This document shows positions 1 through 14,191 of a DNA stretch of 14,191 nucleotides, in pieces. The notes beneath the pieces are model-generated. The model ran no database searches. It saw nothing but the letters and a program-made list of their open reading frames with translations, and was not told the origin of the DNA. Location of the stretch: the IMG/VR virus record IMGVR_UViG_2529292908_000005; one strand, written 5' to 3'. Origin of the DNA: a virus. Lineage: Duplodnaviria; Heunggongvirae; Uroviricota; Caudoviricetes. The position numbers were made by a program, and so were the translations under genes. How positions within the stretch are numbered: the stretch's first letter is position 1; each line of letters opens with the position of its first letter.

Positions 1-1578
1 ACCAGCATCATGCTCAAGGTACCAGGGGGCTCTTCCTGTTTCCTTGGTCAGTTTCATTGCCTTACCCCCGCTGGCTCCGGCATCATCCACGATTTGAGCC
101 TTGCCACCTCCGGCAGCCCAACCCTGTGGTGTCAACCGTCCTTCAGACTCAGATGCCCGGTAAGCAAATAGCGTACTCATCGTCGTGGTGTCTGCGGGTG
201 GCGTGGACGGTTTTGATGGTGTATCAGGTGACGGCTTCTCATCCGGTGGTGTCACGGTCTGCCCGCGCATCAGTTCAGCCGTGCGCCCTGCATGGAGCAT
301 AATAGCTGAGGCCAGACGGTCTGAAATGACGCCCCTGCGTGCCCATGAGCTGAAATGGCTGTCACGCTGTGTCGAAACAAAACTGCCCTGGGTTCGGGAT
401 GCTGCACCGTAATACCCGACAGCCACAATATCCGGGTCTTCCGCCGGAGCATTCGTTGGCGTGCTCTGTCCATTCTCATCCGTCAGGAACGGTACAAAGA
501 AAATTTTCTGTGCTTCCTTGCCTTTGTAGCCACCGTATACTGCCTCATATTTATCGGTGCCAGCGTTTTTCCAGTAATACGTGGTATCACCGCAAATCCA
601 CGGCACCGTGGTGGCATTTCCACTCACGCACTGCGCAGCAAGCGGAGCCAGGTCAGTTCTGAACTGCTGAACCATGGTCGTGAATAAACTATTATGCTGC
701 TGGCTTCCTGAGGCAAGGTCTGCCTCTCCCTGCATCCAGACCACAGCCAGAAGTTTGTTTTTCGGGTTTTTCGCCAGCGCGACTTTGGTGCGGCTTACCA
801 GGTCCTGATACAGAGGTTTACCGGCCCCCCAGCGTGAAGAATCAGCGGAAGCACCGCTGGCCTCACTGAATGAGCCGTCGGCTCCAGTGGTGAATGCTGA
901 CCCGCCACGACAACAGGGCACCAGAAGTATCCCGGCATTCTGTGGGATATAGGGAAGCAGTTTTTGGCAATATGCAACCCCTGACCGACAGTCCCGTACT
1001 GGCCTTTTGCCAGATCAGCTTTCGGGTGGTTTATCCCGCTCATATCCTGAACATCATGCAGGCAGTGGTCCGCCGGAATGATGTCGTTGTATGTACACGA
1101 CGTACCGTTGGGCGTTACCGTACTGCGGCGTGCCAGTTGCTTAATGCGTGGGTCCGGGCGGTCAAACGAATCCGGTAACGGCAGCCCCTCGCCGTAGGCC
1201 ATGCCATTTGACTGACCCGCGAGAATGACAACAAAGTAATATTCCGGCTCTGAACTGCTGCCATTCGTGCTACCGGAAGGCCCGGCGTTATCCGGTGCAT
1301 TCCAGTCGGAGGGCGTGAGCGTTCCGGCCACGTCAGATGTGATTGGAATGATGCCAGTCACGCCTGAACTGGTGATTTCTGCACTGGGATTACCGGATAC
1401 CGGCATTACCCATAATGGCTCTTTCGTGCTGAAGCGGATCACGCAGTCTGCGAAGGTGATCCCCCTTTATTACCCGAAGGGCGGAAGGGCTTTCAATAAA
1501 TGCCACCGTGCCACCGGCAACCTTGACTGAAAACTCTCCGGGCATGGCGGAGAGCATTTTCCACTTGGAGTCTGACAT
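1..1578 (-). pseudogene. nanS: NanS-p-like sialate 9-O-acetylesterase (SASA/SGNH domain) with extra N- and C-terminal regions; frame broken twice; 3' end runs off the window
   Basis: Minus-strand translation gives ...YYFVVILAGQSNGMAYGEGLP... (GQSN motif, ORF 795..1442) and, in the frame open from 960 to 1, ...LLPYIPQNAGILLVPCCRGGSAF...AVVWMQGEADL...GYYGA...; this matches NanS/YjhS-type esterases as recalled. N-terminal piece is ORF 1390..1578. Frame switches sit at C5 (1461-1465) and T5 (961-965). Pro/Thr-rich linker then a further domain towards position 1. Confidence 0.6.
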
Positions 1579-1663
1579 CGTCTTTTCTGCCTGTTTCTGA
1601 ATTAAACAGAGTCAGAATAGCGACCGCTGAAAAATATGTGTTTTGCGGAAATTCAAAAAAGCG

Positions 1664-2236
1664 TCACGGTACTTTTGGTGACGGAGCTGGTGAGGCAGGA
1701 AAATAACGATAAAGGGTGGAAAGGCCAATATCAAATATCAGTGCGATTTGTTTACGGGACTCGCCATTAGCCAGCAAACGGGCGATTTGCTCCCGCTCTT
1801 TCTCTGTCAGTTTCTGAGGTCTGCCGCCATGACGCCCCTGAGCACGGGCAGCAGCAAGACCCGCACGTGTACGTTCAATAATGAGTTCCCGCTCCATTTC
1901 CGCCAGCGCGCCCATTATATGGAAAAAGACACGTCCCATGGGAGTGGATGTATCAATATTGTCCGTAATGCTGCGGAAGTTAACGCCGCGTTGCCGGAGT
2001 TCTTCTGTTAAAAGGACAAGGTGCTGCATACTGCGTCCAAGGCGATCCAGTTTCCAGACCAGCAGGGTATCCCCTGGCCGGAGTCGCTTTAATGCGCGTT
2101 TAAGTCCGGGACGCTCCCTTGTCTTACCGCTTATTCTGTCTTCGAAAAACAGCTCACATCCTGCACATTCCAGCGCATTTCTTTGTAGCGCCGTATTCTG
2201 GTCATTTGTTGACACCCTGATATACCCAATCAGCAT
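1664..2236 (-). CDS. gin: Serine-recombinase DNA invertase (Gin/Pin/Hin/Cin family)
   Basis: 190-aa ORF starting MLIGYIRVSTNDQNT, with catalytic-domain pattern and C-terminal HTH ...LSTLYRYFPAS closely resembling Mu Gin as recalled; AAGGAA SD 5 nt upstream of ATG; start lies 66 bp from the left gix-like site. Confidence 0.95.
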   Translation of the reverse strand: MLIGYIRVSTNDQNTALQRNALECAGCELFFEDRISGKTRERPGLKRALKRLRPGDTLLVWKLDRLGRSMQHLVLLTEELRQRGVNFRSITDNIDTSTPMGRVFFHIMGALAEMERELIIERTRAGLAAARAQGRHGGRPQKLTEKEREQIARLLANGESRKQIALIFDIGLSTLYRYFPASPAPSPKVP

Positions 2237-2301
2237 ACGATTTCCTTATTATAAAAAGCCGGAATTGTCGCATGAGGAATAAAACAGAGTTAATCCTGGC
2301 T

Positions 2302-2327
2302 TTCCTGAAAACCTCGGTTTACGGGAA
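2302..2327. other. gix/hix-like 26-bp invertase crossover site (left)
   Basis: TTCCTGAAAACC|TCGGTTTACGGGAA: two inverted half-sites around a central dinucleotide; right half nearly identical to the Mu gix half-site TCGGTTTACAGGAA as recalled. Confidence 0.8.
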
Positions 2328-2687
2328 ACGGTAAACAGGGCGGCGAATGCTCTGCCATCGGACGGCACCGCCGTTGCCGCGAATAGACTCGCCACCCCAA
2401 GAAATATTAATGGGGTTCCCTTTGACGGGACGCAGGACATAAACATCACTTCTGGTATAACACAGCAGGATGCGGATTCCCGATATATCCAGGATATCAG
2501 GCTGGGAGCAGAGAACAGGCAGGTAATGTACGGTGGGGCATATTACTCTGCGTACGGTAATGTTATGGCAGGCCTGCAGATTGACAGTAAAGTTGATGCT
2601 TCAAAACGATTTTATAGCATTCAGACCCCTGCAAAAATTAGTCGGAGGTACATGGATTACGGTATCTCAGTTATAAATAGTCAGTAA
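2313..2687 (+). CDS. Silent alternative tail-fibre C-terminal cassette (Sv'-like); no start codon of its own
   Basis: Frame open from the left crossover site to TAA 2685-2687, encoding [48 protein letters not shown]...YMDYGISVINSQ. The first ~25 residues repeat the peptide encoded across the right site in the expressed fibre gene, so inversion would fuse this cassette to the constant fibre region. Confidence 0.7.
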   Translation, partial: LGLRETVNRAANALPSDGTAVAANRLATPRNINGVPFDGTQDINITSGITQQDADSRYIQDIRLGAENRQVMYGGAYYSAYGNVMAGLQIDSKVDASKRFYSIQTPAKISRRYMDYGISVINSQ

Positions 2688-2765
2688 ATAATATATTTTA
2701 AAACAGATTTATTTCCAGGAGGATTTTATGGAACTAAAAATATAACCCGTTATTATCCTGAAAAT

Positions 2766-3248
2766 ATGCCATATGGTAATAATGTTCAGTATTTCCAGAG
2801 TGAAGATGGTAAGGATTTCTACGAATCCCTGTCATTATTCACCAAAAAATATAAACTTTGCATAACACCTGACAGCGGCGTTATCTGCTCAATATCACAG
2901 GACGCCTCGGCGCTGTATCCTGCGGGGTTTTCTGTGGTTGAGGTCGATGAACTCCCTGAAGGCACGGATATTTCAGGAAACTGGAAGTTTGATAATGGCA
3001 TAATCTCCCGTATTCCGGTTAACTACGCAAGAAAACTGGAAGCAATGCGCCAGTCATATCTTAATCAGGCATATGAAAAAATTAATGACTGGAGAACGGA
3101 GCTACAACTGGGCACCATCAGCGATGAAGACAGAGCAGCACTTACCCAATGGATGGCATACATCAGTCAGGTGAAGAAAATGGAACTACCCGCCATTAAA
3201 ACAGAAGCTGAATTTAACGCCATTAAATGGCCTGAGCAGCCACAGTAA
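2766..3248 (+). CDS. tfa: Tail-fibre assembly protein (Tfa / Mu U-like chaperone)
   Basis: 160-aa ORF ...YFQSEDGKDFYE...ALYPAGFSVVEVDELPEG...GNWKFDNGIISR...KWPEQPQ, the characteristic Tfa pattern. ATG 2766 has no SD; a stronger start (AGGAGG + ATG 2728) lies upstream in another frame (see findings). Confidence 0.85.
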   Translation: MPYGNNVQYFQSEDGKDFYESLSLFTKKYKLCITPDSGVICSISQDASALYPAGFSVVEVDELPEGTDISGNWKFDNGIISRIPVNYARKLEAMRQSYLNQAYEKINDWRTELQLGTISDEDRAALTQWMAYISQVKKMELPAIKTEAEFNAIKWPEQPQ

Positions 3249-3251
3249 TAA

Positions 3252-3271
3252 AGAAGGCCGGAAGGCCTTCT
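3252..3271. terminator. Hairpin between convergent tfa and fibre genes (probable bidirectional terminator)
   Basis: AGAAGGCC-GGAA-GGCCTTCT: perfect 8-bp GC-rich stem with 4-nt loop, 3 nt after the tfa stop; T-rich run (TTATTACTG) on the minus-strand side. Confidence 0.5.
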
Positions 3272-3385
3272 GAATATCATTATATACTTGCAGCCGTCAC
3301 CCATGCTCCATTTAACAGATACTGCAACGGCCGGTAATACACGCCGCCGACGTTATCTGCCGTATTCTTACCGACATCCTGTACT

Positions 3386-4162
3386 TTAATTCCGGTAAGA
3401 ACATTGCCGCCCCCCCAGATTCAGATCCCAGCTTTCCCATGTTCCGGGCATATGTGCGGTCACCGACCCCAGTCTTATGGCGGTTACTGTTCCTGATGAG
3501 ATAGTGATATCCTGCGTCCCGTCAAAGGGAACACCATTAATTGTGTGGGCATTTGCCAGCCTGTTCGCGGCAACGGCGGTGCCGTCCGATGGCAGGGCAT
3601 TCGCCGCCCTGTTTACCGTTTCCCGTAAACCGACGTTATCGATAAAAGCCCCTTTATCCGGAATGTCTGCGCCGTTCTGCTCCCTGCGCAGGTAACGGTT
3701 ATCACCTTCGCTTTTGCTGTAAACATCCAGATTATTACGGGCGGTTCCCTTATTCTCCAGGTCGGCGAGATTCTGATCCTTCGCCAGGGCATTAACGTCA
3801 CCGGGACCAAGACTGTTTTTTGTGGCAAGCGTCCCCAGACCAAGATAACCACGGGCCAGACGCTGGGCCTCCGCACCGGCATCAGCAATTTCTTTCAGGT
3901 TATTTTTCCGGGAAAAGGCATTCGCAGCGATAATGGCTTTAATGGACAGCGTAAGCTGGTTTAACTGCGCCTTATCCGGCTGAATACTGGCTTCAGCCAG
4001 AATATTCAGCAGTTCGGCCTGGAGAATATTCAGCCAGTCCTGACCAATCCAGCTGATACCTTTTTGTCCGTCACCTTCGGTAAACCAGGTGGTGGTATTA
4101 CTCTGCGCCGGTGCCAGCGCAGGCATATTCGCCACGCCGGAATTATTATCAACATGAAACAT
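3386..4162 (-). CDS. Tail fibre protein (Mu S / P2 H-like): constant N-terminal part plus variable C-terminus inside the invertible segment; C-terminus probably truncated by a frameshift
   Basis: 258-aa ORF with ...[48 protein letters not shown]... crossing the right gix-like site; ATG overlaps the upstream gene stop (TAATG). A C7 tract at 3410-3416 is followed by a stop 8 codons later, while the -1 frame stays open to 3280. Confidence 0.85.
3620..3645. other. gix/hix-like 26-bp invertase crossover site (right, inverted)
   Basis: Reverse complement reads TTATCGATAACG|TCGGTTTACGGGAA; same TCGGTTTACGGGAA half-site as the left site and TTATC...AAC outer half as in Mu gix as recalled; lies inside the fibre coding sequence (encodes FIDNVGLRE). 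Confidence 0.8.
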
Positions 4163-4722
4163 TAAATAGTCTCCTCTTCATGGCTGTTTGCATACACGTA
4201 AATAAACGTCTGCCATGCAGGCTTATAACGGTTCAGAATACATTCCAGCGCACCGCCTTCATAAATACGCAGCGGCGTGAGAATATCATCCAGCACATTC
4301 ATATTCCGGTAGCCGGTTTCACTGTTAATCGTGACAATACTGACCCACTGCGAATCCGGTGAGGGCTGAATGTCAATCTGATAACCAAACTCCGCCGCAA
4401 ACCGGATATAAAATTCACGGTTCAGCGAGGGCTTCATCCGGTATTTATTTCCGGCATAACGCTGTCGCTCCGTGAGGGTGGCTCCGGCCATATCACACTC
4501 GGGAAGCCCGAGATAACGCTCCCAGTCTTCCAGCAGCAGGCGCGACGTGTCAGGGAAACGCTCGGCAAGCAGCTGTTTACCCGTCCAGGATACACGCGCT
4601 GTCGAATGACTGAGGCCCAGACATAATGATGCCAGTACGGATGACGGACGCTTGTCCCATGCCAGCCCGTCAGGCAGTAACTGCAACAGGGCGCGCTGAT
4701 GCGGGGTCAGGGTTACAGCCAT
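4162..4722 (-). CDS. Phage tail protein, DUF2313 / Mu gp48 / YmfQ-like
   Basis: 186-aa ORF in the conserved slot between baseplate J and tail fibre; start overlaps the J stop region and its stop overlaps the fibre start; composition and position match the gp48/YmfQ family as recalled. Confidence 0.75.
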
Positions 4723-5795
4723 GTGATTTCTCCTACCGTCAGCAGCTCACTGTCTCCCGCCTGAACTGACGTCAGCGGACTGCGCACTTCAAAATCCTCC
4801 AGATTTTTCACCCCTGCCACCGCCCGCCAGAAAGACGACGGCAGAACCAGACCGCCGGGCCGGGATTCGTTATACAACAGGTCGGTCAGCGCCTGTTTTA
4901 CGGCCGCCTGATTCTCCGGTGTTTTCGGGATGATCCTGATGCTGAAGGGCACCGGCTTATTGGTCAGTTTAAACACGGTCACCGTCGGCCCCAGAGGCTG
5001 TCCGACAGGCTGGCCGGTCGCCGGATCATCATGACTGCGGATATAATCCGCCACCCGCTGAACATCACCGTCACCGGGGAAAATATCCGGGTTATTATCC
5101 TGAACAAACGTTACCCCCACGCTGCCCGCCTGCGGCCATTCCGGGCGGCACCATGCCCGCGTCACGCCCGGCACTTCACGCGCCCAGCGTTCAAAATCAT
5201 ACTGCGTGCCGCCGGACGGTGGATTCTGCACCCGGAAAACCAGACGGGAAAGCAGCTCCGGCACGGTTTCCACATCCGCACCACCGGTGATCCCCGTTCC
5301 GGTCACCGTGGACGTCTGGTTGATCCCCGCCTGCGGTGTGATAAATGTCAGTTTTGTCCCTGCCGGGGCATTCCCCGCACGACCGGCACTTTCGGCTTCC
5401 ACACTGACATTCAGCGTACCGGCCTTACCGGTCAGGGAGGTGGTGATACGGTAAACCACGCCATCACTTCGCTGGAGAAGCACACCTTCCTTGATCCCCG
5501 CATCCGTGGTCAGCATCAGCTGAACCGGCCCGTCCCCCCGAGAGGCAGGCTTACGCATGACGCCCCAGAATGCACAGTGTTTCAGCAGTTCGGCTTCATC
5601 GGCTTCGGTCGGGATGATCTGACGCGCAATCCAGGCCAGATGCTCATGCTCCTGAGCAGATAACCCTGCCTGAGCGTAAGCAATGGCATTCAGGGTGGTT
5701 TCATTCACACCCGGCTGCGAGCCGGGCAGGCGCTGGCTGATATCCTGCTGTGTCTGCGTGATTAACTGTGCCAGCGGTAAAGGCTGATAAGGCAT
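4713..5795 (-). CDS. Baseplate J-like protein (Mu gp47 / P2 gpJ family)
   Basis: ORF-track frame 4713..5837 starts at TTG; a better start is ATG 5793-5795 (MPYQPLPLAQ...) with a GGG-containing SD. Translation shows the J-family layout (...ADEAELLKH.AFWGV.RK.A..A.G...GGADVE...) recalled from P2 J. Confidence 0.85.
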   Translation of the reverse strand: MPYQPLPLAQLITQTQQDISQRLPGSQPGVNETTLNAIAYAQAGLSAQEHEHLAWIARQIIPTEADEAELLKHCAFWGVMRKPASRGDGPVQLMLTTDAGIKEGVLLQRSDGVVYRITTSLTGKAGTLNVSVEAESAGRAGNAPAGTKLTFITPQAGINQTSTVTGTGITGGADVETVPELLSRLVFRVQNPPSGGTQYDFERWAREVPGVTRAWCRPEWPQAGSVGVTFVQDNNPDIFPGDGDVQRVADYIRSHDDPATGQPVGQPLGPTVTVFKLTNKPVPFSIRIIPKTPENQAAVKQALTDLLYNESRPGGLVLPSSFWRAVAGVKNLEDFEVRSPLTSVQAGDSELLTVGEITWL

Positions 5796-5954
5796 TAACC
5801 CTGTTCGATAAGGGGCTGATTTCCCGTGAGGAGGCAATACATATTATCAATCTCGCTCAAAAAAACTCTACCCCGGAAAATGCAGAAGATATCCAGGATG
5901 GCTCATATATTAATACCGACTGGCATTTCGACAATCTCCGGGCCTGTATGGGGA

Positions 5955-6242
5955 TTACCGCTGAAAAAGATTAAAAATTTTTGCATAATGTTCAGATGTA
6001 AGAATTGCTGAACCATCAACACCGAGCCTGCGGCGAACGTATTCCTCGCGGGCTATTTTATTATCCAGAGATACAGCATCCTTAATCAGGTTAATCTCCC
6101 GCTCCATTATCAAAAGGGCTTCTCTGGCTGCAAGATTTTCTTTTATCGCATATTCGATAATGTCCCGCATACGTTCAAGCATGCCGATTTTAGCCAGTTC
6201 TTCGTCGATAGATTTAGGCGCAAATTTGATTTCTTTTTCCAT
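5955..6242 (-). CDS. Hypothetical protein, predicted all-helical, encoded in AT-rich DNA
   Basis: ORF-track 5955..6257 (GTG start); preferred start ATG 6240-6242 (MEKEIKF...) with GAGGA SD 8 nt upstream, 1 nt after the stop of the upstream zinc-ribbon ORF; markedly lower GC than neighbours. Confidence 0.5.
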   Translation of the reverse strand: MEKEIKFAPKSIDEELAKIGMLERMRDIIEYAIKENLAAREALLIMEREINLIKDAVSLDNKIAREEYVRRRLGVDGSAILTSEHYAKIFNLFQR

Positions 6243-6243
6243 A

Positions 6244-6387
6244 TTATTCATCCTCACAATTTATACATGCAGTGTCGTCGCCCATATCGCAGTGGTTACA
6301 TTTTATCTCACCACAATGTGGGCACTCTTTCAGATACTCCGGGTCCTCATTTCCACAGGTGGGACATTCAACAATTTGCTCATCCAT
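6244..6387 (-). CDS. Small 4xCxxC zinc-ribbon protein (47 aa), not in the ORF track
   Basis: ATG 6385-6387 to TAA 6244-6246 translates MDEQIVECPTCGNEDPEYLKECPHCGEIKCNHCDMGDDTACINCEDE: four CxxC pairs in 47 residues; AGGGGA SD 7 nt upstream; start overlaps the stop of ORF 6380..6712 (ATGGATGA). Confidence 0.5.
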   Translation of the reverse strand: MDEQIVECPTCGNEDPEYLKECPHCGEIKCNHCDMGDDTACINCEDE

Positions 6388-6712
6388 TATGTATCCCCTG
6401 TAATTCCGGCAAGGCCGAAAGATGGCACCAGTGCGTCACCTGTCCGTCCTCATCTTCAAGGCAGGCTCCGGTTTCTTCATCAATAAAAAAGCCTTCATAC
6501 CCCATATGGCCGATGCGCAGTTCCTGTTGGTCACCATACTGAACAATCAGCACGACAGCCTCCATATCAGGCGGAAATGCGTCATCCAGTGAATGCCAGG
6601 GATAACCGCGCAAATCCCCGAAATAAACGCCGGTCAGCGTTCCGCCACAGAGCGGCATTCCGGCGGCACACACAAGAGGTTCATCTGATTCAACAAATAA
6701 GGTCGTTATCAT
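6380..6712 (-). CDS. Hypothetical protein (110 aa)
   Basis: ORF with ATGA start/stop overlap to the upstream gene at 6709-6712; acidic C-terminal half; no family recognised. Confidence 0.55.
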   Translation of the reverse strand: MITTLFVESDEPLVCAAGMPLCGGTLTGVYFGDLRGYPWHSLDDAFPPDMEAVVLIVQYGDQQELRIGHMGYEGFFIDEETGACLEDEDGQVTHWCHLSALPELQGIHNG

Positions 6713-7260
6713 GGCGTTAACTCCCGTAATACAGCGTCCTCGGCAGTCCGGCGACGGTAATAAACTGCGTGAGCAGAATGTTCAGATATTCCAAACTTTT
6801 CGCCAATTTCCCGGAATGACAGACGGCGTGGGTAATCGGAATCACGCAGCGCACGTATAAGACGTACATCATCATCAGATATGCGCGTGCCGGGGCGTAA
6901 CTCTCCGCACTTTGTTAATCCAGCACCAATCATTCCTGCCCGACATCTGACAGAATCTTTATTACGTCCGAGATATTCTCCCATTTGCTGGCAGGTCATT
7001 GTTCTGGCATTTTTTCGAATAAACTTATCTTCATCAGGTGTAAATCTTGGGTGTTTATATTTCAGTAACTCCGGGTATGAACTGCGCAATACACCAGTCC
7101 GGTTATATACAGCCCAGACAGTTCTTTTTATTCTGGCAGCAATATCCTTAACCGGGGTGGATGAATAAAGCGCAATCAGTAGCGCATCTTCTTCAGGTGT
7201 CCACGCGCGGACATGAGCGGGTGTACGACCTTTTCGCCCCATGGGTTGTAATTTCATCAT
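6709..7260 (-). CDS. Putative DNA-binding protein with tandem Myb/SANT-like HTH repeats
   Basis: 183 aa; repeats ...RAWTPEEDALLIALYS...IAARIKRTVWAVYNRTGVL and ...RFTPDEDKFIRKNARTMTCQQMGEYLGRNKDSVRCRA, plus a third weaker HTH-like segment; strong AGGGGGTGA SD; start 3 nt after the upstream stop. Confidence 0.6.
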   Translation of the reverse strand: MMKLQPMGRKGRTPAHVRAWTPEEDALLIALYSSTPVKDIAARIKRTVWAVYNRTGVLRSSYPELLKYKHPRFTPDEDKFIRKNARTMTCQQMGEYLGRNKDSVRCRAGMIGAGLTKCGELRPGTRISDDDVRLIRALRDSDYPRRLSFREIGEKFGISEHSAHAVYYRRRTAEDAVLRELTP

Positions 7261-7263
7261 GCA

Positions 7264-7779
7264 TCACCCCCTGACTCGCTTTTCAGCAGCATAAAACTCA
7301 TCAGACAGTATTTCGGTCATTTTCTGTTTTGCGGGTTTTACGCCGCACTGAAGGTAAATCACATCGTCAACGCAGAACCACTTCACAGGGCCAAACAGGA
7401 TTGCCGAGAAATCAATACCCAGCCAGAACAACAGCGCATCGGTTCTGGCATACGTGACGGGTGAATATTCACGCCACAGACTGTTCAGTTCATCAGAGGC
7501 AACACGCAGGGTTTTAGGGATACGTGATGTGCGCGGTGTGCAGCTCCAGCCATTCGACGCAGTCGGTTTTCGCCATAAGTCGCGATGAAAAGGATATTTG
7601 TCCTCCGTAAAACGCAGTCCCTTAAAGCAAAATCCACTGATACCGGATACAAATACCGACCGGCACGCAACATTCAGCACGGCCTCAAGGCGTTTTGCCT
7701 CATCCTTAACTTTCTGGCAGTCCTGCTGGTATTTTTGCCACGCAGCCAGCGCGGAAGGGTTTGATGTTTTAAAGAACAT
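7264..7779 (-). CDS. Hypothetical early-region protein (171 aa)
   Basis: ORF whose ATG shares a nucleotide with the upstream stop (TAATG at 7777-7781); no family recognised. Confidence 0.55.
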   Translation of the reverse strand: MFFKTSNPSALAAWQKYQQDCQKVKDEAKRLEAVLNVACRSVFVSGISGFCFKGLRFTEDKYPFHRDLWRKPTASNGWSCTPRTSRIPKTLRVASDELNSLWREYSPVTYARTDALLFWLGIDFSAILFGPVKWFCVDDVIYLQCGVKPAKQKMTEILSDEFYAAEKRVRG

Positions 7780-8312
7780 TACGCCACCTCCGCAGATATC
7801 CCGGCAGGCGCTGCTGTCCGGTCAACAATCAGGTAGCGCAGAACATGTTCAGTGATATTCCAGCCGCTTAAACCGCAGATAATGACGCCCAGGCGTATGT
7901 CGATATACGCCATCACAAACTGGGGCACGCCTTCTTTCATGGCCTGCTCATCAACTTCAGCCACCACATAAACGGTTTCACAGGTCAGAACGCCCTGAGC
8001 AAATTCCCACGCCATCGACGGAATATCATGCCCCTCAATCCATGGCAGGGATTTTCTGAAGCCGCACCACTGAACATCATCAGCCGCAGATTCCTGGCTG
8101 CATTTGCGACGAACCGGCTGCACCGGGCGGGGGCGCGGAATATCATAAAAACCGTTACATTCCGTCAGCACGCCTGCATCAACCGCATCACGCAGAAAAT
8201 AAACCATGGAGGATGGCGGCATATTCATTTTTTCAGCCAGTACACCGCAGGTCAGGCGGCCATAAATACGCAGCCAGTTTTTAACCCCTTCAAGCACTTT
8301 TGCATCAATCAT
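7779..8312 (-). CDS. Hypothetical early-region protein (177 aa)
   Basis: ORF with GGGGAAA SD 7 nt upstream of ATG 8310-8312; first gene after the 145-bp AT-rich gap downstream of gam; no family recognised. Confidence 0.55.
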   Translation of the reverse strand: MIDAKVLEGVKNWLRIYGRLTCGVLAEKMNMPPSSMVYFLRDAVDAGVLTECNGFYDIPRPRPVQPVRRKCSQESAADDVQWCGFRKSLPWIEGHDIPSMAWEFAQGVLTCETVYVVAEVDEQAMKEGVPQFVMAYIDIRLGVIICGLSGWNITEHVLRYLIVDRTAAPAGISAEVA

Positions 8313-8457
8313 GATTTATTTCCCCACCACATTATTAATGACGATATAAACGTATTTCATATTTCTTAACCCTTATTTTCTGTTTTCAGGCGCAAGCAGT
8401 CCCCTGACGCGAGCGCCATAATTAAAATGAAGTGATATTTAATTGATTAATGCGGTG

Positions 8458-8988
8458 TTATTTATTCAGTCCGGCGTCCTGTTCAAAAGGCTCGACATAA
8501 AAACTTTCAGCGCCTTTATTCACCTTGATACCGGCAATGCCTTTCACAGCATCCGGCTCCGCCAGGACGGCTTCCTTGTTCACTTCCTCTTTCGTGCGGA
8601 TGAAACGCTCAAGCCCCATACGGCGCAGCATTTCAATCACACCTTCCACATCACGGCTGACGCTGCATGATGGCGTTCCCAGCCGCCATGACACCGTTCC
8701 GGTGGTCAGATTGGCTGTTTTGGTTTTGCCGCCGTTCGTCAGCTCATCACGGTTGGTTTTGCACCAGTCCTGAATCCCTTTAAAAAGCACTTTGATTTGC
8801 TTTTTAAGATTTTCAATCTGCGGCGTATAACGGGCGGTGATTTCTGCCACTTCGTCATTCATCGCCGTTTCCAGGCGCAGCGCCTCTCGCTGAATATCTC
8901 CCAGGGTGCGGATATCACGGCTGACTTCTTCCCGGGTCTGCGGTGCCGCCTCGGCTGCGGCCTTTAATTTTGTAACGCGTTTAGCCAT
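8458..8988 (-). CDS. gam: Gam-like host-nuclease inhibitor (Mu Gam family, DNA-end binding)
   Basis: 176-aa ORF MAK...DIRTLGDIQREALRLETAMNDEVAEI...DWCKTNRDELTNGGKTKTANLTTGTVSWR...ERFIRTKEEVNKEAVL...EPFEQDAG, co-linear with Mu Gam as recalled; AGGA SD. Confidence 0.9.
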   Translation of the reverse strand: MAKRVTKLKAAAEAAPQTREEVSRDIRTLGDIQREALRLETAMNDEVAEITARYTPQIENLKKQIKVLFKGIQDWCKTNRDELTNGGKTKTANLTTGTVSWRLGTPSCSVSRDVEGVIEMLRRMGLERFIRTKEEVNKEAVLAEPDAVKGIAGIKVNKGAESFYVEPFEQDAGLNK

Positions 8989-8999
8989 TTTGTTTTTCC

Positions 9000-9293
9000 T
9001 TATTGCAGTGTGCCTGATGCTTTATGCACGCGGTGGCGTTTAATGATGGCATCCGCTCCAAAAGACTGTGCAGATGCCTGAAATTCCGCTGAGAGAAACT
9101 GAATAATTGCAGGACTGTGATACTGGAGAATACTTGCATAAACGTCACAGAGTGACGTCGGCCTGTTATCCGTATCACGTTCTGTTTTTACATCCACACC
9201 AATCTTTTCATGCACTTCAACACTGTCATTGCCTGCCGGTTTTTCGTCATGCGAAACATGCTCAAATTCAAAAATAACGCGTACTTTGCTCAT
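9000..9293 (-). CDS. Hypothetical small early protein (paralogue 1 of a tandem pair)
   Basis: ORF-track 9000..9320; preferred start ATG 9291-9293 (MSKVRVIFEFEHV...) with GGGG SD, 4 nt after the upstream gene stop; N-terminus parallels the upstream gene (MSKVVRIIFEYKE...). Confidence 0.55.
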   Translation of the reverse strand: MSKVRVIFEFEHVSHDEKPAGNDSVEVHEKIGVDVKTERDTDNRPTSLCDVYASILQYHSPAIIQFLSAEFQASAQSFGADAIIKRHRVHKASGTLQ

Positions 9294-9297
9294 GGAA

Positions 9298-9570
9298 TTA
9301 CCCCTGCTGATTAAATTCATTACCGTTAATAACCCCGGAAGCCATGCCTCTGTCTTTCATGAATGCACTGGCTTTCATTGCCACAAACTCTGCGAAGTTT
9401 CTGCTTTCTGCCAGCATAACCACCCCAAAAATCATGGCGGGTCCATTATCTTTCTTCTTTATTCCGGTTGAACGTATATCCAGACTTACCCCTCTGTGCG
9501 TGCTGCCATCAGAGTTTTTGCAGATAACATCTTCCTTGTATTCGAAAATAATGCGTACGACTTTACTCAT
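9298..9570 (-). CDS. Hypothetical small early protein (paralogue 2 of a tandem pair)
   Basis: 90-aa ORF MSKVVRIIFEYKEDV...; 4-nt start/stop overlap with the upstream gene. Confidence 0.55.
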   Translation of the reverse strand: MSKVVRIIFEYKEDVICKNSDGSTHRGVSLDIRSTGIKKKDNGPAMIFGVVMLAESRNFAEFVAMKASAFMKDRGMASGVINGNEFNQQG

Positions 9571-9848
9571 CCTCTGGTCCTCGTTCTGTTTGGATAACTG
9601 ACCCGGCGTCTAACCTCACGGCAGAACCGAATCATGGCATTAAAGGCTTCTTCCTCCGTCACCGCTTCCGGTATCCCAGGAACCAGTAGCTGTTCCTGTT
9701 CATCGCGTCCATGACGCGCCATAACCTCAATCACATGCCGTACCGTGGCAGGCTTTCCGGCAACTATCGGCAATGCACCTTCCGGCAGGACGTAACCAAA
9801 CTCAATAAGACCACTCGACCACGCCCATGCAATGAGATTTCGTTTCAC
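9567..9848 (-). CDS. Hypothetical small early protein (93 aa)
   Basis: ORF packed between neighbours in the B-to-gam interval; no family recognised. Confidence 0.5.
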   Translation of the reverse strand: MKRNLIAWAWSSGLIEFGYVLPEGALPIVAGKPATVRHVIEVMARHGRDEQEQLLVPGIPEAVTEEEAFNAMIRFCREVRRRVSYPNRTRTRG

Positions 9849-9849
9849 C

Positions 9850-10116
9850 TCACACCTCCCAGTAAACCGTGCAGCCGCTGATGCGGGTGGCCTTCACACG
9901 GCGGCGCAGGCCGTTGGTCTGTATGGTGATTTCAATTTCACCGGTTCCCTGCACGTTGCCTACCGGCGGCGTGGTTTTCAGTGCAAAACGTTGCGGATAG
10001 CGCTTACTGCGTTCCAGTACCGCACCGGCAAGTTCGGTCAGACGGCGCGCGCTGTTCAGGGAGTCGAATAAATTCATTTTGTTACCGCAGGATTGCATAT
10101 TCATATAACACCTCAT
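9850..10116 (-). CDS. Hypothetical small early protein (start ambiguous: ATG at 10116, 10104, 10098 or 10077)
   Basis: ORF directly following the upstream stop (TAA ATG); several in-frame ATGs, GAGGTG SD-like element before 10104/10098; sits where kil-type genes lie in Mu, but no sequence recognition. Confidence 0.45.
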   Translation of the reverse strand: MRCYMNMQSCGNKMNLFDSLNSARRLTELAGAVLERSKRYPQRFALKTTPPVGNVQGTGEIEITIQTNGLRRRVKATRISGCTVYWEV

Positions 10117-10338
10117 TTAGCTGACTTGTTTCGCACCAACAGAACGGCATATTCCGCTGTAAACTTCTGTCGCACCTTCGCGATCAAGTCCGGCAGATAT
10201 CACCATTCGTGTGCGGTCATTAAATTCAAAAAGTAAATCGCCACATTCTTTATTTTCGGCCAGTGAAATCACCTTCACGTTATCGAAATTAACCAGGTAA
10301 AAGCGTCCGTAAATATCAGGAATATTAAATACCGCCAT
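10117..10338 (-). CDS. Hypothetical small early protein (73 aa)
   Basis: ORF-track 10117..10344 (GTG); ATG 10336-10338 with AGGTG SD 5 nt upstream is preferred; begins 2 nt after the B stop. Confidence 0.5.
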   Translation of the reverse strand: MAVFNIPDIYGRFYLVNFDNVKVISLAENKECGDLLFEFNDRTRMVISAGLDREGATEVYSGICRSVGAKQVS

Positions 10339-10340
10339 AA

Positions 10341-11273
10341 TCACACCTGTGAGAGTAATTCAGGGTTGGTATAAACCTCTTTAAAGGCCGCATTAATATG
10401 TTTTTCTGTCAGCGCCGCGCCTTCACCGCTGGCGGTGAGCCACGCCTGGTTAAGCGTATGTGTCAGAACGCGTAACGCTCCCGGCTTTTCAGCGATAGCC
10501 TGCATGACGGCCAGCTCGGCCTCACCACTGATACCCCATGCCCTGGCAATGGCCAGCACATCCGCCTTTTTGGCCTTGCGAAGTTGTTTTGTACGGGCAA
10601 GACGGCTGAACAGGCGCGATAAATCATCAAAGGCGCGGCGTCCACCTTTAAACAATCCGCGCGGGTTACCAATAAGCACCATCCCGATCCCCGTGGCGTC
10701 CTGAATTGCCCGGAGTTGCTCCAGACCGTCAATACCAAGATGATCCGCCTCATCCACAATCACCAGTCCACGCGTTCCCGTCAGGCGACGGCGGATGGCG
10801 CGGGATAATGCCCCTTTGTTCGCGCGGGTGTAATCAATCCCCAGCGCATCGGCCAGCTCCAGCAGACACTCCGTGACGCTGGAGTGCGCGGGTGACAGGG
10901 TGATCATCCAGGTGTTTGGTTGCTCCTGGCAGTAATTACGGGCAGTGGCCGTTTTACCCACACCCGGTACGCCCACAATAACGTTAATACAGCCCATCAG
11001 GCGAACCGCCTGAAACAGTGCGCGCAGCTCCTGGACTGTCTGAGTTTCCACAAACTGCGGCGGTTCCGGCAGTGCGCTTTGTTTATTCCAGTTCTCATAC
11101 CAGGAGCGCAGGGAAGCAGCCACAGCGGCGTTATCGCCTTTATATTTCCCCTTGCGGAAAGCCGATAATGTGCCGTCGGAAATTCCCGCCTCTCTGGCGA
11201 TGGCATACTGCGTCAGCACGCCGCCATCAATAAGTTCATCAATGGTCTTGATTACATCGTTTATATCGGTCAT
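10341..11273 (-). CDS. B: MuB-like transposition target-capture protein (AAA+ ATPase)
   Basis: 310-aa ORF with Walker A VGVPGVGKTATARNY, ...LVIVDEADHLG..., N-terminal HTH-like region, and co-linearity with Mu B as recalled (...GDN..V...L..W...PEPP.FVETQTV...KPGALR.L...); GAGG SD; directly downstream of the transposase. Confidence 0.92.
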   Translation of the reverse strand: MTDINDVIKTIDELIDGGVLTQYAIAREAGISDGTLSAFRKGKYKGDNAAVAASLRSWYENWNKQSALPEPPQFVETQTVQELRALFQAVRLMGCINVIVGVPGVGKTATARNYCQEQPNTWMITLSPAHSSVTECLLELADALGIDYTRANKGALSRAIRRRLTGTRGLVIVDEADHLGIDGLEQLRAIQDATGIGMVLIGNPRGLFKGGRRAFDDLSRLFSRLARTKQLRKAKKADVLAIARAWGISGEAELAVMQAIAEKPGALRVLTHTLNQAWLTASGEGAALTEKHINAAFKEVYTNPELLSQV

Positions 11274-11312
11274 ATTATTACCTCGCGTTTGTGTAGTTCC
11301 TTTGTTTAATCA

Positions 11313-11348
11313 AATAACCTGAGTCGCCGCTCGGGTTATTTTTTATTT
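11313..11348 (+). terminator. Stem-loop plus T-tract in the A-B intergenic region; reads as an intrinsic terminator on the strand antisense to A/B
   Basis: AATAACCTGAG-TCGCCG-CTCGGGTTATT (11-bp stem with one G-U pair on the plus-strand RNA) followed by TTTTATTT; on the sense (minus) strand the stem has a C-A mismatch and a weaker U-tract. Confidence 0.35.
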
Positions 11349-13438
11349 CAGGCCAGAGGGTCATTTTCTTTTAATTTCGCTTCAAGCAGCTGCAATCCCC
11401 GCTGGAAATTACGCTCGTATTCTTCATCAGGTTCATCGTCAGCGACCGGTTGCTGAACGATCACCGTATTACCCACAGGGCGGTATATATTTTCCAGCCA
11501 CGGCTCCTGTGGCTTGTGCTCCAGCACGTTGACAATCTCATCCTCGGCATCACGGATTTTTTCCTCTGCGCGTTTACGCATGCCTTTAAGGCGCTGCTGC
11601 TGTTTGTGGTATTCCGCGCTGACCGGGAAGGCTTCGCGTTTATTGCCGTCCCATACCGCCTCGCAAATCACGCTGCCATCCGGGCGACGTACGGTAATTC
11701 GTTCGGCATCATGAATGTCATAGCTGATAAGCACCTTACGACCATGCTCGTCACGCAGCTCGGGCGCGTAGTAAATATTATTCAGCCAGCGTATTTCACA
11801 GCGTCTTACAGGGCGTTCCACCATCGGCCGGAACATATCCCGCAGCTCAACATCGGACAGCCATTCAATTTCCGTGTCCTCTTCCGCCAGGCGTTTTTTT
11901 CTGAACTCCGCCGGGCTGTAATGCTTGCCGTTCGGCTTCACCGGTAATTCATCGTGCGGCCGGTTGTTGTACCACTCAACACCATCACGAATGGCATCAA
12001 TCAGTTCAGCCCAGGACGGTAAATCACGCATCGCTGACTGCTGCCGGGCGTTCAGCCGTTTGCCCTGTTGCAGGGCAGTAAATGCCGAGCGTAAATCGCG
12101 GTTGGTTTTGCGTAACGTCTCGCGATCTGCACCTTTCCCGAAATAGGTGCGGTATTTACGGGCTATGCGCATCGGTAATGTGCGGTTAAGCCGTTCGATA
12201 ATGCCTCGTCCCTGCGGATTACCGGCAATCCCGGTCGGGTGATTAATCCCCAGTCGCGGCAGTATCCCCACAACCTCCTTATCCAGGATGTCGGCGGTTT
12301 CCCCGGAGCCGTTATCCGAGTAATACAGAAACGGTTTGCCGTGATGGCGAATGCCGTGCTGTATGGCACCGGCTACGGCGAAAACATTTTCAGCCAGGTC
12401 AAGGCTCCAGCCCACCACAAAGCGCGTGCCACCGTCGATAACAAAGGTCACTTCCGGTGCAAATGGCCGACCGTGAACCGGGTGTGCGCATTTCAGCTTC
12501 ATGCCGTGACCGTCACCAATCCAGACATAATTCACCGGCATTTTTGACCAGTCGCGGCGCGTGAATCCCTCAAGCTGGCGGTATTCACTGCCGGTCACCC
12601 GGCCTTTTTGTTTCACCACTTCCGGCAGTTTCTTCATTGCGCGGCGAATGGTGTCATAAGACGGCATGATATCGAGCATATAAGGCTCATCAGCGTGCCG
12701 GTGCTGCCATTCAGCAACAAAATCCTCGTAAGCCTCGGTCATTGGTCGGCCGTTTGACTGGCGATACTGCGCCAGAAATTCGGGCAGCCAGTTAATATCT
12801 TCGGCTTTTATTTCCTGGCGCTTACCCGGTGCCAGTAAAAGCAGGCGTTCAGCGGCGTTCTGCGCCTTGTTAAAGGCCGCAATCCAGCGTTTCAGCGTGA
12901 TTTCACTTAACGCGCGGCTGTTTCCCTTTTTGGCGTTCGCCGTCTCAACCATTGCCACAATGCGCTCGTCCAGCTGCGAACGTGCCAGGTTGTCAACGAT
13001 AAACCGGATAGCCTTCGCACAGCTGAAACCAGGTTGTTGCGCGACTTTCAGCACCTCGCTGACGATCGCGATTCGTGCATCAGCCACCTGGCGCTGGTTT
13101 TCAGTCAGGGCATTAAGGCGTTCAACCATCAGTTGTGGTGATCCGCGATATGCCTCCACCGCATCAACCACGGCAGGCGAGCGTCTGGCCTTTGTCACCA
13201 CTGGAGCCGGTGATTCATCGACTTTTTGAGTCATCAGTTGCAGGGCGTAGCGTTCACGTAATGCCTGCTGCGTCACTTCAGGTAAACAGTCGATGCTGTA
13301 TTCAGTTGCTTTAGAGCCTGAGCGACGACGGGAACAACAGCTTTTCCCTTGTACGTAACGTTGTAATGCCTGGCGAATACCTTTTGTTGTAGCAGGCATT
13401 CCGGGCGCGCCAATCAGTTCTTTTGCAATGACATACAT
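11348..13438 (-). CDS. A: Mu-type DDE transposase (MuA-like)
   Basis: 696-aa ORF of MuA size, immediately between ner-like and B-like genes; start 1 nt after the ner stop (TGATATG); internal ...YVWIGDGHGMKLKC... core region. Assignment rests mainly on size and conserved ner-A-B synteny. Confidence 0.9.
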   Translation of the reverse strand: MYVIAKELIGAPGMPATTKGIRQALQRYVQGKSCCSRRRSGSKATEYSIDCLPEVTQQALRERYALQLMTQKVDESPAPVVTKARRSPAVVDAVEAYRGSPQLMVERLNALTENQRQVADARIAIVSEVLKVAQQPGFSCAKAIRFIVDNLARSQLDERIVAMVETANAKKGNSRALSEITLKRWIAAFNKAQNAAERLLLLAPGKRQEIKAEDINWLPEFLAQYRQSNGRPMTEAYEDFVAEWQHRHADEPYMLDIMPSYDTIRRAMKKLPEVVKQKGRVTGSEYRQLEGFTRRDWSKMPVNYVWIGDGHGMKLKCAHPVHGRPFAPEVTFVIDGGTRFVVGWSLDLAENVFAVAGAIQHGIRHHGKPFLYYSDNGSGETADILDKEVVGILPRLGINHPTGIAGNPQGRGIIERLNRTLPMRIARKYRTYFGKGADRETLRKTNRDLRSAFTALQQGKRLNARQQSAMRDLPSWAELIDAIRDGVEWYNNRPHDELPVKPNGKHYSPAEFRKKRLAEEDTEIEWLSDVELRDMFRPMVERPVRRCEIRWLNNIYYAPELRDEHGRKVLISYDIHDAERITVRRPDGSVICEAVWDGNKREAFPVSAEYHKQQQRLKGMRKRAEEKIRDAEDEIVNVLEHKPQEPWLENIYRPVGNTVIVQQPVADDEPDEEYERNFQRGLQLLEAKLKENDPLA

Positions 13439-13439
13439 A

Positions 13440-13688
13440 TCATGACGCCTTTCTCATATAGCTCTTAACCTGGTATCGACTGGGCCAGATTTCTTCAGGC
13501 GATACCCCAAGAGCATCAGCAATTATTTGCTGATACGGTCGGCAAGGAGTACGTAATACGCTTTTCAGCGAATCCCTGCTGTAACCAGCCTTTAAAGATA
13601 AAGAGCGCAGTGATAAGCCAGCCATGTGTAAGCGCGCCTTGATGATTTCAGGCGGCCAATCGTGATCTGAAACTTCTCTTCTACTCAT
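13440..13688 (-). CDS. ner: Ner-like DNA-binding regulator (Ner/Nlp family)
   Basis: 82-aa ORF ...DWPPEIIKARL...GLSLRSLSLKAGYSRDSL...QQIIADALGVSPEEIWPSRY..., co-linear with Mu Ner / E. coli Nlp as recalled; first gene of the early operon, divergent from the repressor. Confidence 0.88.
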   Translation of the reverse strand: MSRREVSDHDWPPEIIKARLHMAGLSLRSLSLKAGYSRDSLKSVLRTPCRPYQQIIADALGVSPEEIWPSRYQVKSYMRKAS

Positions 13689-13855
13689 ACTTCCTCTATT
13701 CTAAAAAGTTACCCGCGCGGATATTCGTGCGGATATCTGTACGGGTAAATAATAGAACAAGCAAAAGAACCAAATCAAGGTATTTTGTTCTTTTTATTCT
13801 TTGCGGTGTTTTTGTTATTAATATCAATAAGATAAATAAAAAGGAACCTGAGAGC
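13689..13855. promoter_or_regulatory. Divergent early promoter/operator region between ner and the repressor gene
   Basis: 167-bp AT-rich intergenic region. Direct repeats GCGGATAT at 13717-13724 and 13729-13736 nested in inverted arms TTACCCG (13709-13715) / CGGGTAA (13742-13748). Candidate leftward promoter: -35 TTGATT (13773-13778) and -10 TATTAT (13749-13754), 18-bp spacer. AAGGAA SD for the repressor at 13841-13846. Confidence 0.5.
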
Positions 13856-14191
13856 ATGAACATGAAAAACAGTTCTTTTCTCGACGAAGGAAAAGAACCA
13901 GTGATCGAACGGATTTTTCGTCTTGCAGAGCGTTACAAATCGAGAAGTGAGGCGGCTAGAGCATGGGGAATAAACGTTCAGACATTGCAGAACTACTACA
14001 AAAGGAGAAACAATCAGCCGCCACCACAACCAAGAAAGCACCATCTCCAGAACATTGCAGAAAGAGAACATGTATCTATGGAGTGGCTGGTCAATGGTTA
14101 TGGTGATGAGCCAAGCATGAAAAAAGAACCAATTGAACAAACAAAAAGAACAAAAAACAAAGAATTGATGATAGTGATTCCATCATCATGA
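13856..14191 (+). CDS. Prophage repressor, CI-type HTH (Phage_CI_repr-like); ends at the window edge
   Basis: ORF-track frame 13727..14191; preferred start ATG 13856 (MNMKNSS...) with AAGGAA SD 9 nt upstream; HTH segment ...SRSEAARAWGINVQTLQNYYK... and the ...VSMEWLVNGYG motif typical of CI-type repressor N-domains; divergent from ner-A-B. Confidence 0.7.
   Translation: MNMKNSSFLDEGKEPVIERIFRLAERYKSRSEAARAWGINVQTLQNYYKRRNNQPPPQPRKHHLQNIAEREHVSMEWLVNGYGDEPSMKKEPIEQTKRTKNKELMIVIPSS

Follow-up and report, generated by a model that had tools for sequence, protein, structure and literature searches.

A probable Gin/gix-type invertible tail-fibre segment with one chaperone gene in a Mu-like prophage of Escherichia coli

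Introduction

Can an invertible segment that carries two alternative tail-fibre tips make do with a single chaperone gene? The question is raised by positions 2302-3645 of the IMG/VR record IMGVR_UViG_2529292908_000005, a 14,191-nt stretch of Caudoviricetes DNA (hereafter the window, meaning that whole stretch). An earlier note, made from the letters alone, had described here an invertible tail-fibre segment with Mu gix-like sites and asymmetric contents. Tail-fibre and tail-fibre assembly genes are among the commonest targets of programmed inversion in genome-wide surveys (PMC9881135, PMC4272514).

Our comparisons make it highly probable that the locus is the G-segment homologue of an Sp18-type Mu-like E. 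coli prophage, in which Gin-type inversion swaps the fibre tip. The invertase would recombine two inverted gix-type sites at their identical TC core and flip 1.3 kb, fusing the constant fibre part (Sc, amino acids 1-177) to one or the other of two homologous receptor-binding cassettes and thereby changing host range. In the window orientation, the fibre bears the cassette that lacks a co-linear chaperone gene, tfa, and the one tfa present is antisense to it. A single Tfa would serve both tips whenever it is expressed, or Tfa would come from elsewhere in the cell, another resident prophage being one possibility.

Results

A Gin-family invertase beside two inverted gix-like sites

Two 26-bp sites lie in inverted orientation at the outer ends of an 86-nt repeat. 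They share an identical TC core, have imperfect 12-bp half-sites, and bound about 1.3 kb adjoining the invertase gene:

1664-2236, minus strand: Gin-family serine DNA invertase, 190 amino acids, intact; Pfam Resolvase and HTH_7
2302-2327, plus strand: invertase-proximal gix-like site, TTCCTGAAAACC TC GGTTTACGGGAA; core TC at 2314-2315; 21/26 match to Mu gix
3620-3645, minus strand: fibre-side gix-like site, on the fibre strand TTATCGATAACG TC GGTTTACGGGAA; core at 3632-3633; 22/26 match to Mu gixL
2307-2455, plus strand: left repeat arm, 86 nt at 93% and then 50 nt at 84%; coding
3492-3640, minus strand: right repeat arm, partner of the left arm

Across the 14.2 kb of the window, the half-site TCGGTTTACGGGAA has two exact copies, one at 2314-2327 (+) and one at 3620-3633 (-). 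The chance expectation is about 0.06 matches, and two copies arose in 0 of 200 shuffles. A generic 12-2-12 Din-type site pattern finds the same two places and no third match in the window. The earlier note had proposed this inverted pair with its shared half-site, and its coordinates are correct. The window holds two crossover sites, so it stands apart from multiple-inversion systems (p15B Min, shufflons), which have more than two.

In an inverted-repeat scan of the window, the outer arms (2307-2392 and 3555-3640) pair over 86 nt with 93% complementarity, and an inner block (2406-2455 and 3492-3541) extends them at 84%. The longest perfectly identical stretches between the arms measure 37, 32 and 23 bp. 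The arms are coding and continue as diverged protein homology, as had been suggested, with the cassettes homologous throughout. The fibre-side core occupies positions 2-3 of the Val177 codon. A conserved 17-residue peptide, amino acids 178-194, is encoded by the arm just inside the crossover. The crossover had been placed within this peptide; the core in fact lies just upstream of it.

The invertase gene starts 65 bp from the left site. Its product has the make-up of a Din small serine recombinase, with an N-terminal catalytic domain (Pfam Resolvase, 1.6e-51) and a C-terminal helix-turn-helix domain (HTH_7, 4.9e-15), and retains the catalytic Ser in the motif IRVSTNDQ. It aligns with Mu Gin (PDB 4m6f, 3uj3) over 184 residues (E = 2.5e-88) at ~72% identity, counted from the alignment, in support of the earlier assignment of a Gin-family invertase adjoining the ~1.3-kb segment. 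The recombinational enhancer is a point on the other side. Matches to a weak, degenerate Fis consensus are conserved 54 bp apart at nucleotides 78 and 132 in gin and in all invertase genes of the family, and third-codon-position identity to gin is just slightly raised at the 5' end of the gene. A Fis enhancer in the 5' part of the invertase gene is a candidate feature at most.

Codon 103 of the window invertase (1928-1930) encodes Val, where the relatives and Mu Gin have Phe103. In Gin, Phe103 belongs to a flat hydrophobic interface for subunit exchange (PMC3575834). The V103 allele is real, as identical proteins are encoded in SRR9913975 and GCA_012373615.2.

Both orientations occur among near-identical prophages

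Positions 1600-4200 of the window are ~99.7% identical to prophages of complete E. coli genomes, 19 of which are colinear with the window and 6 of which carry the opposite form. FORC_043 has the latter: tfa and the fibre share a strand, and the other cassette completes a fibre of 296 amino acids, which is the arrangement that the earlier note had foreseen after inversion. Strains DLI.5a and TOE17 each hold one copy per orientation.

Clean pairs of opposite orientation (the window, L001 and L007 versus L008, L010 and L002; L numbers denote the loci compared) locate the exchange. The outer half-sites, site positions 1-12, stay put, while everything from position 50 at the latest moves with the segment, and the exchange interval begins exactly at the core. 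In a sub-family related at 85%, the O157:H7 strains FRIK2069 and ECP19-198 differ by inversion of the whole segment, core to core, at 99.6% identity. When the ECP19-198 orientation was used as the query, 25 genomes were colinear and ~200 others, at 90-99% identity, aligned over the flanks only; orientation was checked, and found to be opposite, in one of them. Together with related forms, the family occurs in about 240 of 5,426 complete E. coli genomes, O157:H7 included. These alignments suggest that the segment still flips in nature, with exchange at the 26-bp sites. They agree with the earlier note both on an invertible Gin/gix-type segment and on the 26-bp elements as recombination points, the check by site alignment having placed the exchange boundaries at the sites.

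Some observations pull the other way. The evidence for inversion is comparative and comes from relatives rather than from the window's own strain. In NCCP 13905 (L004) the flanks and both arms are identical to those of FORC_043 and the interior is inverted, with the switch within a 23-bp identical block, GTTCCCTTTGACGGGACGCAGGA, 100-125 bp inside the sites; in the right arm of L009 (TOE17) a conversion tract lies between arm positions 50 and 83. Neither mosaic can be accounted for by one exchange at the sites. Gene conversion, homologous exchange between the arms, or consensus polishing of a culture of mixed orientation are possible causes. The mosaic arms of L004 lie at 3703-3838 and 4907-5045.

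These mosaics bear on an alternative in which RecA-dependent recombination between the ~135-bp inverted coding repeats, rather than an invertase acting at the sites, turns the segment over. The arms are long and 84-93% identical, L004 and L002 have exchanged inside the 23-bp block 100-125 bp inside the site, and the L009 tract spans arm positions 50-83. We consider this alternative very improbable: the interval of exchange in clean pairs opens precisely at the site core, the O157 pair moves core to core, the sites have Mu gix as their homologue, and the gene for an intact homologue of Gin is 65 bp away. The identical stretches of just 37, 32 and 23 bp are poor RecA substrates, and the L004 pattern is also expected from polishing of a mixed-orientation culture. 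In Mu itself, Gin cleavage has reportedly been mapped at gix by experiment. Site-specific inversion by the Gin homologue remains the favoured mechanism.

Two short-read contigs with the same invertase allele, L019 and L020, end at window positions 2343 and 2350. The first base that distinguishes the two arms is 2351, where an assembly graph forks. Such ends are expected from the k-mer limit; a mixed-orientation culture would give the same.

An A5-to-A4 frameshift at about codon 105 of the invertase is common to three remnant copies (L007, L008 and L010), which include both orientations. Either the flips predate the mutation, or the invertase of another prophage acted in trans, or the frameshift is a recurrent homopolymer artefact. 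Pin enzymes of other prophages can act in trans, as shown for e14 (PMC12529663).

The segment holds two homologous cassettes and one tfa gene

The fibre gene enters the segment from the right, and the remaining contents lie between the two arms:

3632-4162, minus strand: constant fibre part Sc, amino acids 1-177, homologous to the Mu S constant part
3280-3631, minus strand: cassette now fused to the fibre (Sv), 116 amino acids in relatives, without a co-linear tfa; truncated at 3386 in the window
2316-2687, plus strand: silent alternative cassette (Sv'), 119 amino acids in relatives; frame-shifted in the window at the A4 run 2603-2606
2728-3248, plus strand: tail-fibre assembly (chaperone) gene tfa, 173 amino acids in relatives; Pfam Caudo_TAP 4.8e-19
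3252-3271: G+C-rich hairpin between the convergent fibre and tfa stops, 3' of the expressed genes in either orientation

Fibre residues 1-191 match Mu S (PDB 5yvq_A, 8ju3_A) with E about 1e-46, and over its final ~70 residues the fibre aligns with the Mu S and S' tips (IRLG…RPxQ…NGxW…). As in Mu G, the constant part lies outside and two opposed C-terminal cassettes lie inside, and both fusions are annotated as intact in relatives. The C7 run 3408-3414 truncates Sv through a +1 shift, seven relatives having C6 or C5 there; a run of C6 gives a cassette of 116 amino acids that ends in …GGVYYRPLQYLLNGAWVTAASI. Relatives have A3 at 2603, and their Sv' ends in …FRPLQKLVGGTWITVSQL at a stop that corresponds to 2674-2676, so that the window reading of the last ~25 Sv' residues is wrong owing to the A4-for-A3 shift. 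Likewise, tfa is frame-shifted at the A5 run 2736-2740 (A6 in relatives), and the longest open reading frame in the window therefore starts at 2766. The Tfa protein is homologous to Mu U (PDB 5yvq_B, E = 4e-16).

Read in the frames of the relatives, the two cassettes are homologous over their whole length (48% identical, 116 versus 119 amino acids). Because they are homologous and similar in size, the asymmetry of the segment is limited to tfa. The earlier note was right that the present orientation leaves tfa antisense to the fibre; the short variable end that it assigned to the fibre is the product of C7 in place of C6. It had also taken 2313-2687 as the reading of the other cassette, which is itself frame-shifted at 2603-2606, and had missed both this shift and the one in tfa. 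An asymmetry of contents beyond tfa does not survive comparison of two homologous cassettes of 116 and 119 amino acids. What stands is the presence of one tfa, unlike Mu G: the segment has a single Caudo_TAP gene, and this is conserved in relatives.

The hairpin at 3252-3271 is a putative terminator. The spacer from the Sv' stop to the tfa start is AT-rich, 51-121 nt long and non-homologous among sub-families (window 2677-2727; L003 3975-4095; L005 4548-4626; L006 4549-4668), and a small hairpin, CTGAAATATGCGTTATTTCAG, lies inside it in L003 and L006. The equivalent tip-to-tfa spacer in Mu, POP15 and the P1-like phage measures 0-5 nt.

One chaperone gene is conserved for two fibre tips

A single tfa is present in the segment of every relative examined, namely L001-L010, L029 and the Citrobacter braakii prophage L021. 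The E. coli relatives span 81-99% identity, with L003 and L006 at 81-86% and L005 and L029 from O157:H7; the fibre N-terminus of L021 is 73% identical. Outside E. coli, the species-representative genomes scanned yielded two informative relatives. The two convergent stops are separated by 31 nt that include the hairpin, so that no trace of a second tfa is left. All diverged relatives have the tfa-less cassette intact, with a ratio of nonsynonymous to synonymous substitutions (dN/dS) of 0.09-0.15 at dS 0.34-0.72, which argues for its expression and usefulness. Among assemblies, the segment is more often seen in the orientation that joins this cassette to the fibre. Both fibre forms appear to be in use.

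How might one Tfa suffice? Tfa proteins that are 91% identical adjoin tips that are just ~52% identical. These divergent tips beside near-identical Tfa, together with a tip-tfa swap in Citrobacter, lend support to a Tfa shared between tips. Several results weigh against sharing. In the O157 relatives, Tfa is 61-64% identical and has diverged along with its linked tip, and the tfa-less tip is 90% identical; this co-divergence would fit a cognate Tfa better than a shared one. A consensus scan of the plus strand found no sigma-70-like promoter for tfa in the window orientation. A relaxed promoter scan of the tip-to-tfa spacers of four diverged loci gave 8-of-12 matches only, which were unconserved, so that a promoter driving tfa in the antisense orientation is not supported. 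The nearest tips, in POP15, 19-1-2, a P1-like phage and Mu, each have a co-linear gene directly behind them; its annotation is tail-fibre assembly in the case of Mu and POP15, and 'tail fibers protein' or hypothetical for 19-1-2 and the P1-like phage. With each of these tips followed by its own co-linear gene, the single-tfa layout looks derived, and the tfa-less form of the fibre may fold poorly.

An alternative is an on/off switch, in which the second tfa has been lost and the tfa-less orientation yields misfolded or absent fibres, so that inversion toggles infectivity rather than host range. The segment has one tfa with no promoter detected for it in the tfa-less orientation; the homologous tips of Mu, the P1-like phage and POP15 each precede a co-linear gene annotated as assembly or fibre; and Mu S needs U. 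An on/off switch is nonetheless unlikely, given that the tfa-less cassette is intact in all diverged relatives at dN/dS 0.09-0.15, that its orientation is the commoner in assemblies, and that the layout is kept in Citrobacter with the tip types swapped. A host also usually carries other tfa genes.

Rather than a loss, the one-chaperone layout could be a selected design, in which the switch toggles between a fibre co-linear with Tfa and a fibre made without it, both functional. We put this forward tentatively, as a minority possibility. The second form would then be folded by a Tfa supplied in trans, by tfa expressed independently of orientation from the long 51-121-nt spacer, or without any chaperone. 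Mu Tfa reportedly stays bound to the fibre tip (North et al. 2019). On this view, a bound cap, and not the tip sequence alone, could distinguish the two states.

We rejected the idea that the tfa-less tip subtype (…GKNxADNxGGVY…) is, as a general rule, inherently independent of a chaperone. The same subtype is tfa-linked in Citrobacter, and its closest tips (POP15, 19-1-2 and the P1-like phage) precede a tfa-type gene.

The Citrobacter locus L021 differs in its sites. It has one tfa and three gix-like sites, at ~4819, 6856 and 7223 (one forward, two reverse), with a short third stretch between the last two, and may be a three-site system with more than two arrangements.

Comparison with known inversion systems

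The closest match to the window is the Mu G segment. The invertase aligns with Gin. The 26-bp sites with their TC core agree with gix at 21-22 of 26 positions and occupy the same codon of a homologous fibre gene. The Mu G boundary reads TTATCCAAAACC TC GGTTTACAGGAA ACGGTAAACAGGGC, and the 14 nt after the fibre-side site are identical to Mu. The crossover context is …N-V/G-L-R-E-T-V-N-R in the window and …N-L/G-L-Q-E-T-V-N-R in Mu. Shared features extend to the constant Sc outside the segment and alternative tips inside it, and to the gene order gp47, gp48, fibre, segment, invertase; the window segment follows gp47 and gp48 at the right end of a Mu-type transposable prophage, as in Mu.

The differences are those of a compact element. 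The segment is 1.3 kb in the window versus 3 kb in Mu, and the fibre has 293 and 296 amino acids here versus 504 in Mu. Mu has two assembly genes (S, U, U', S') where the window has one tfa; Mu G provides a co-linear assembly gene for each cassette (U and U'), whereas the window has one Caudo_TAP gene only. The inverted repeats of Mu and SfMu are 34 bp (PMC4406740), compared with at least 86 nt here. Downstream of the invertase, com/mom of Mu is replaced by an esterase gene (DUF6645 and SASA). By its recombinase, its sites and the occurrence of both orientations the segment belongs with the Din family, and it departs from the Mu G layout in lacking one chaperone per cassette.

The invertible host-specificity region of Sp18 was noted in 2009 by Asadulghani et al. 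(PMC2669165). The O157:H7 relatives L005 and L029, which we equate with Sp18 of strain Sakai by serotype and gene set rather than from the Sakai record, have the same gene set and architecture, with flanks ~85% identical to the window family. They differ in carrying other tip cassettes and an invertase gene of 561 bp versus 573 bp, and the window copy is internally deleted.

The e14 P segment with PinE and the P1 C segment with Cin share the recombinase family and the logic of swapping fibre C-termini. In contrast to the window, e14 has pix-type sites (…AAACCTTGGTTTGGGAGAA…) and two tfa genes (stfE, tfaE, tfaP, stfP), and P1 is likewise not a single-tfa system. The 'Mu' locus of enteropathogenic E. 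coli (EPEC) E2348/69, which has been shown experimentally to vary, was considered as a member of the same family and rejected on its pix-type repeats and 1.9-kb length. Carotovoricin Er is reported to have a small invertible segment with 26-bp inverted repeats that swaps a fibre C-terminus without a chaperone for each cassette; it is said to be a P2-type tailocin of Pectobacterium with a different invertase, Ein (Nguyen et al. 2001). We found no description of the single-chaperone layout in the searchable literature, whose reach does not extend to the older fibre-inversion papers.

The mechanism proposed here is textbook, and for this prophage family an invertible region was on record from Sp18; the addition is modest. 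New are a description at sequence level of a compact G-segment homologue with comparative evidence for its flipping, and the conservation of one chaperone gene for two alternative tips with purifying selection on the cassette without tfa. If both forms work, the locus offers a natural test of the specificity of Tfa for fibre tips, which matters for engineering the host range of phages and tailocins.

The window copy: internal deletion and homopolymer frameshifts

The flanks of the segment show that the window copy is not a complete prophage:

4162-4722, minus strand: Mu gp48-like (YmfQ) gene; Pfam Phage_Mu_Gp48
4713-5795, minus strand: Baseplate_J (gp47-like) gene; Pfam Baseplate_J
5795/5796: internal deletion junction, where the Baseplate_J start codon abuts Mu early-region DNA
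10341-11273: MuB, early region
11348-13438: MuA, early region
13440-13688: Ner, early region

Upstream of the fibre gene, gp48 and Baseplate_J are the neighbours normally found. Homology to full-length relatives ends at 5795/5796, with the Baseplate_J start codon on one side and the vicinity of gp16 on the other, and in the full-length relative AF39 (OZ547136) the two joined parts lie ~24 kb apart. Beyond the junction (5796-14191), the early genes for Gp11, Gp12, Gam, Kil, MuB, MuA and Ner all appear intact. Full-length relatives carry Mor, lysis and gp16 genes; the window copy is missing mor and the lysis, head and tail genes, so that no particles can come from it. It is an internally deleted prophage that cannot build virions, and presumably its late genes are not transcribed either. 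The junction was not found in any complete genome of the collection searched. Remnants in other genomes have junctions of their own, and in some of them the invertase is frame-shifted. The deletion had escaped the earlier note.

The frameshifts described above belong to a larger set. Over 4.2 kb, the window differs from L001 at 13 positions, seven of them substitutions and six of them one-base changes in homopolymer length:

957-961, 1457-1461, 1484-1485, 2603-2606, 2736-2740 and 3408-3414: homopolymer length changes, window versus L001

At five of the six sites, seven close relatives are unanimous against the window. The window starts at the end of a 131-kb draft contig, AIFX01000029.1 (GCA_000249635.2), and all six changes are of +/-1, private to that contig and at most 3.4 kb from its end. 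Two further assemblies share the invertase allele exactly and span three of the sites, where their runs are of intact length. Weighing against sequencing error, six frameshifting indels fall in 1-4200 and none in 6 kb of early open reading frames (Fisher P = 0.005), and this contradicts a uniform error rate, which we rejected. The position at the contig end and the two contigs with the same allele again make error the likelier cause of the shifts in tfa and both cassettes, with a slight preference over recent decay.

If the frameshifts in the two cassettes, tfa and the esterase gene were real, the locus would be a decaying fossil, functionless even if it still flips. This is a substantial possibility, though not the one we favour. 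The window copy is without mor, lysis, head and tail genes, its six frameshifts in 1-4200 contrast with none in 6 kb of early reading frames (P = 0.005), and independently deleted remnants exist elsewhere, some with a frame-shifted invertase. On the other side stand the nature and place of the changes (all +/-1 in homopolymers, in one draft contig, within 3.4 kb of its end), the intact runs at three covered sites in two same-allele assemblies, the error-like ratio of six indels to seven substitutions, and the intact invertase, sites and constant fibre part. Error near a contig end is the reading we prefer. The case carries a lesson for annotation: homopolymer shifts of a single base can make a draft contig look structurally asymmetric. 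That deletion remnants keep a flipping fibre module for the benefit of the host would be a less likely account of their persistence; a host benefit has been reported for e14 StfE2 (PMC12529663).

The C run at 3408-3414 varies in length: the window has 7 bases, most relatives have 6 and FORC_043 has 5. Two independent assemblies thus have the tfa-less cassette out of frame. Sequencing may have erred more than once at this longest homopolymer, or the tract may be prone to slippage.

The shifts at 957-961, 1457-1461 and 1484-1485 split a 684-amino-acid gene downstream of the invertase. The gene encodes DUF6645 and SASA sialate O-acetylesterase domains, is NanS-p-like, occupies the position of mom in Mu, and is unbroken in every relative, the two same-allele contigs among them.

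With its transposition genes and right-end module but no virion genes, the window element resembles a natural mini-Mu, and a genome may have related sequences at up to 8 places. Over 4200-5795, gp48 and Baseplate_J are ~85% identical to L001 and ~97% to FORC_043. The adjacent 4.2 kb is 99.7% identical to L001, which places a sharp mosaic boundary near the start of the fibre gene.

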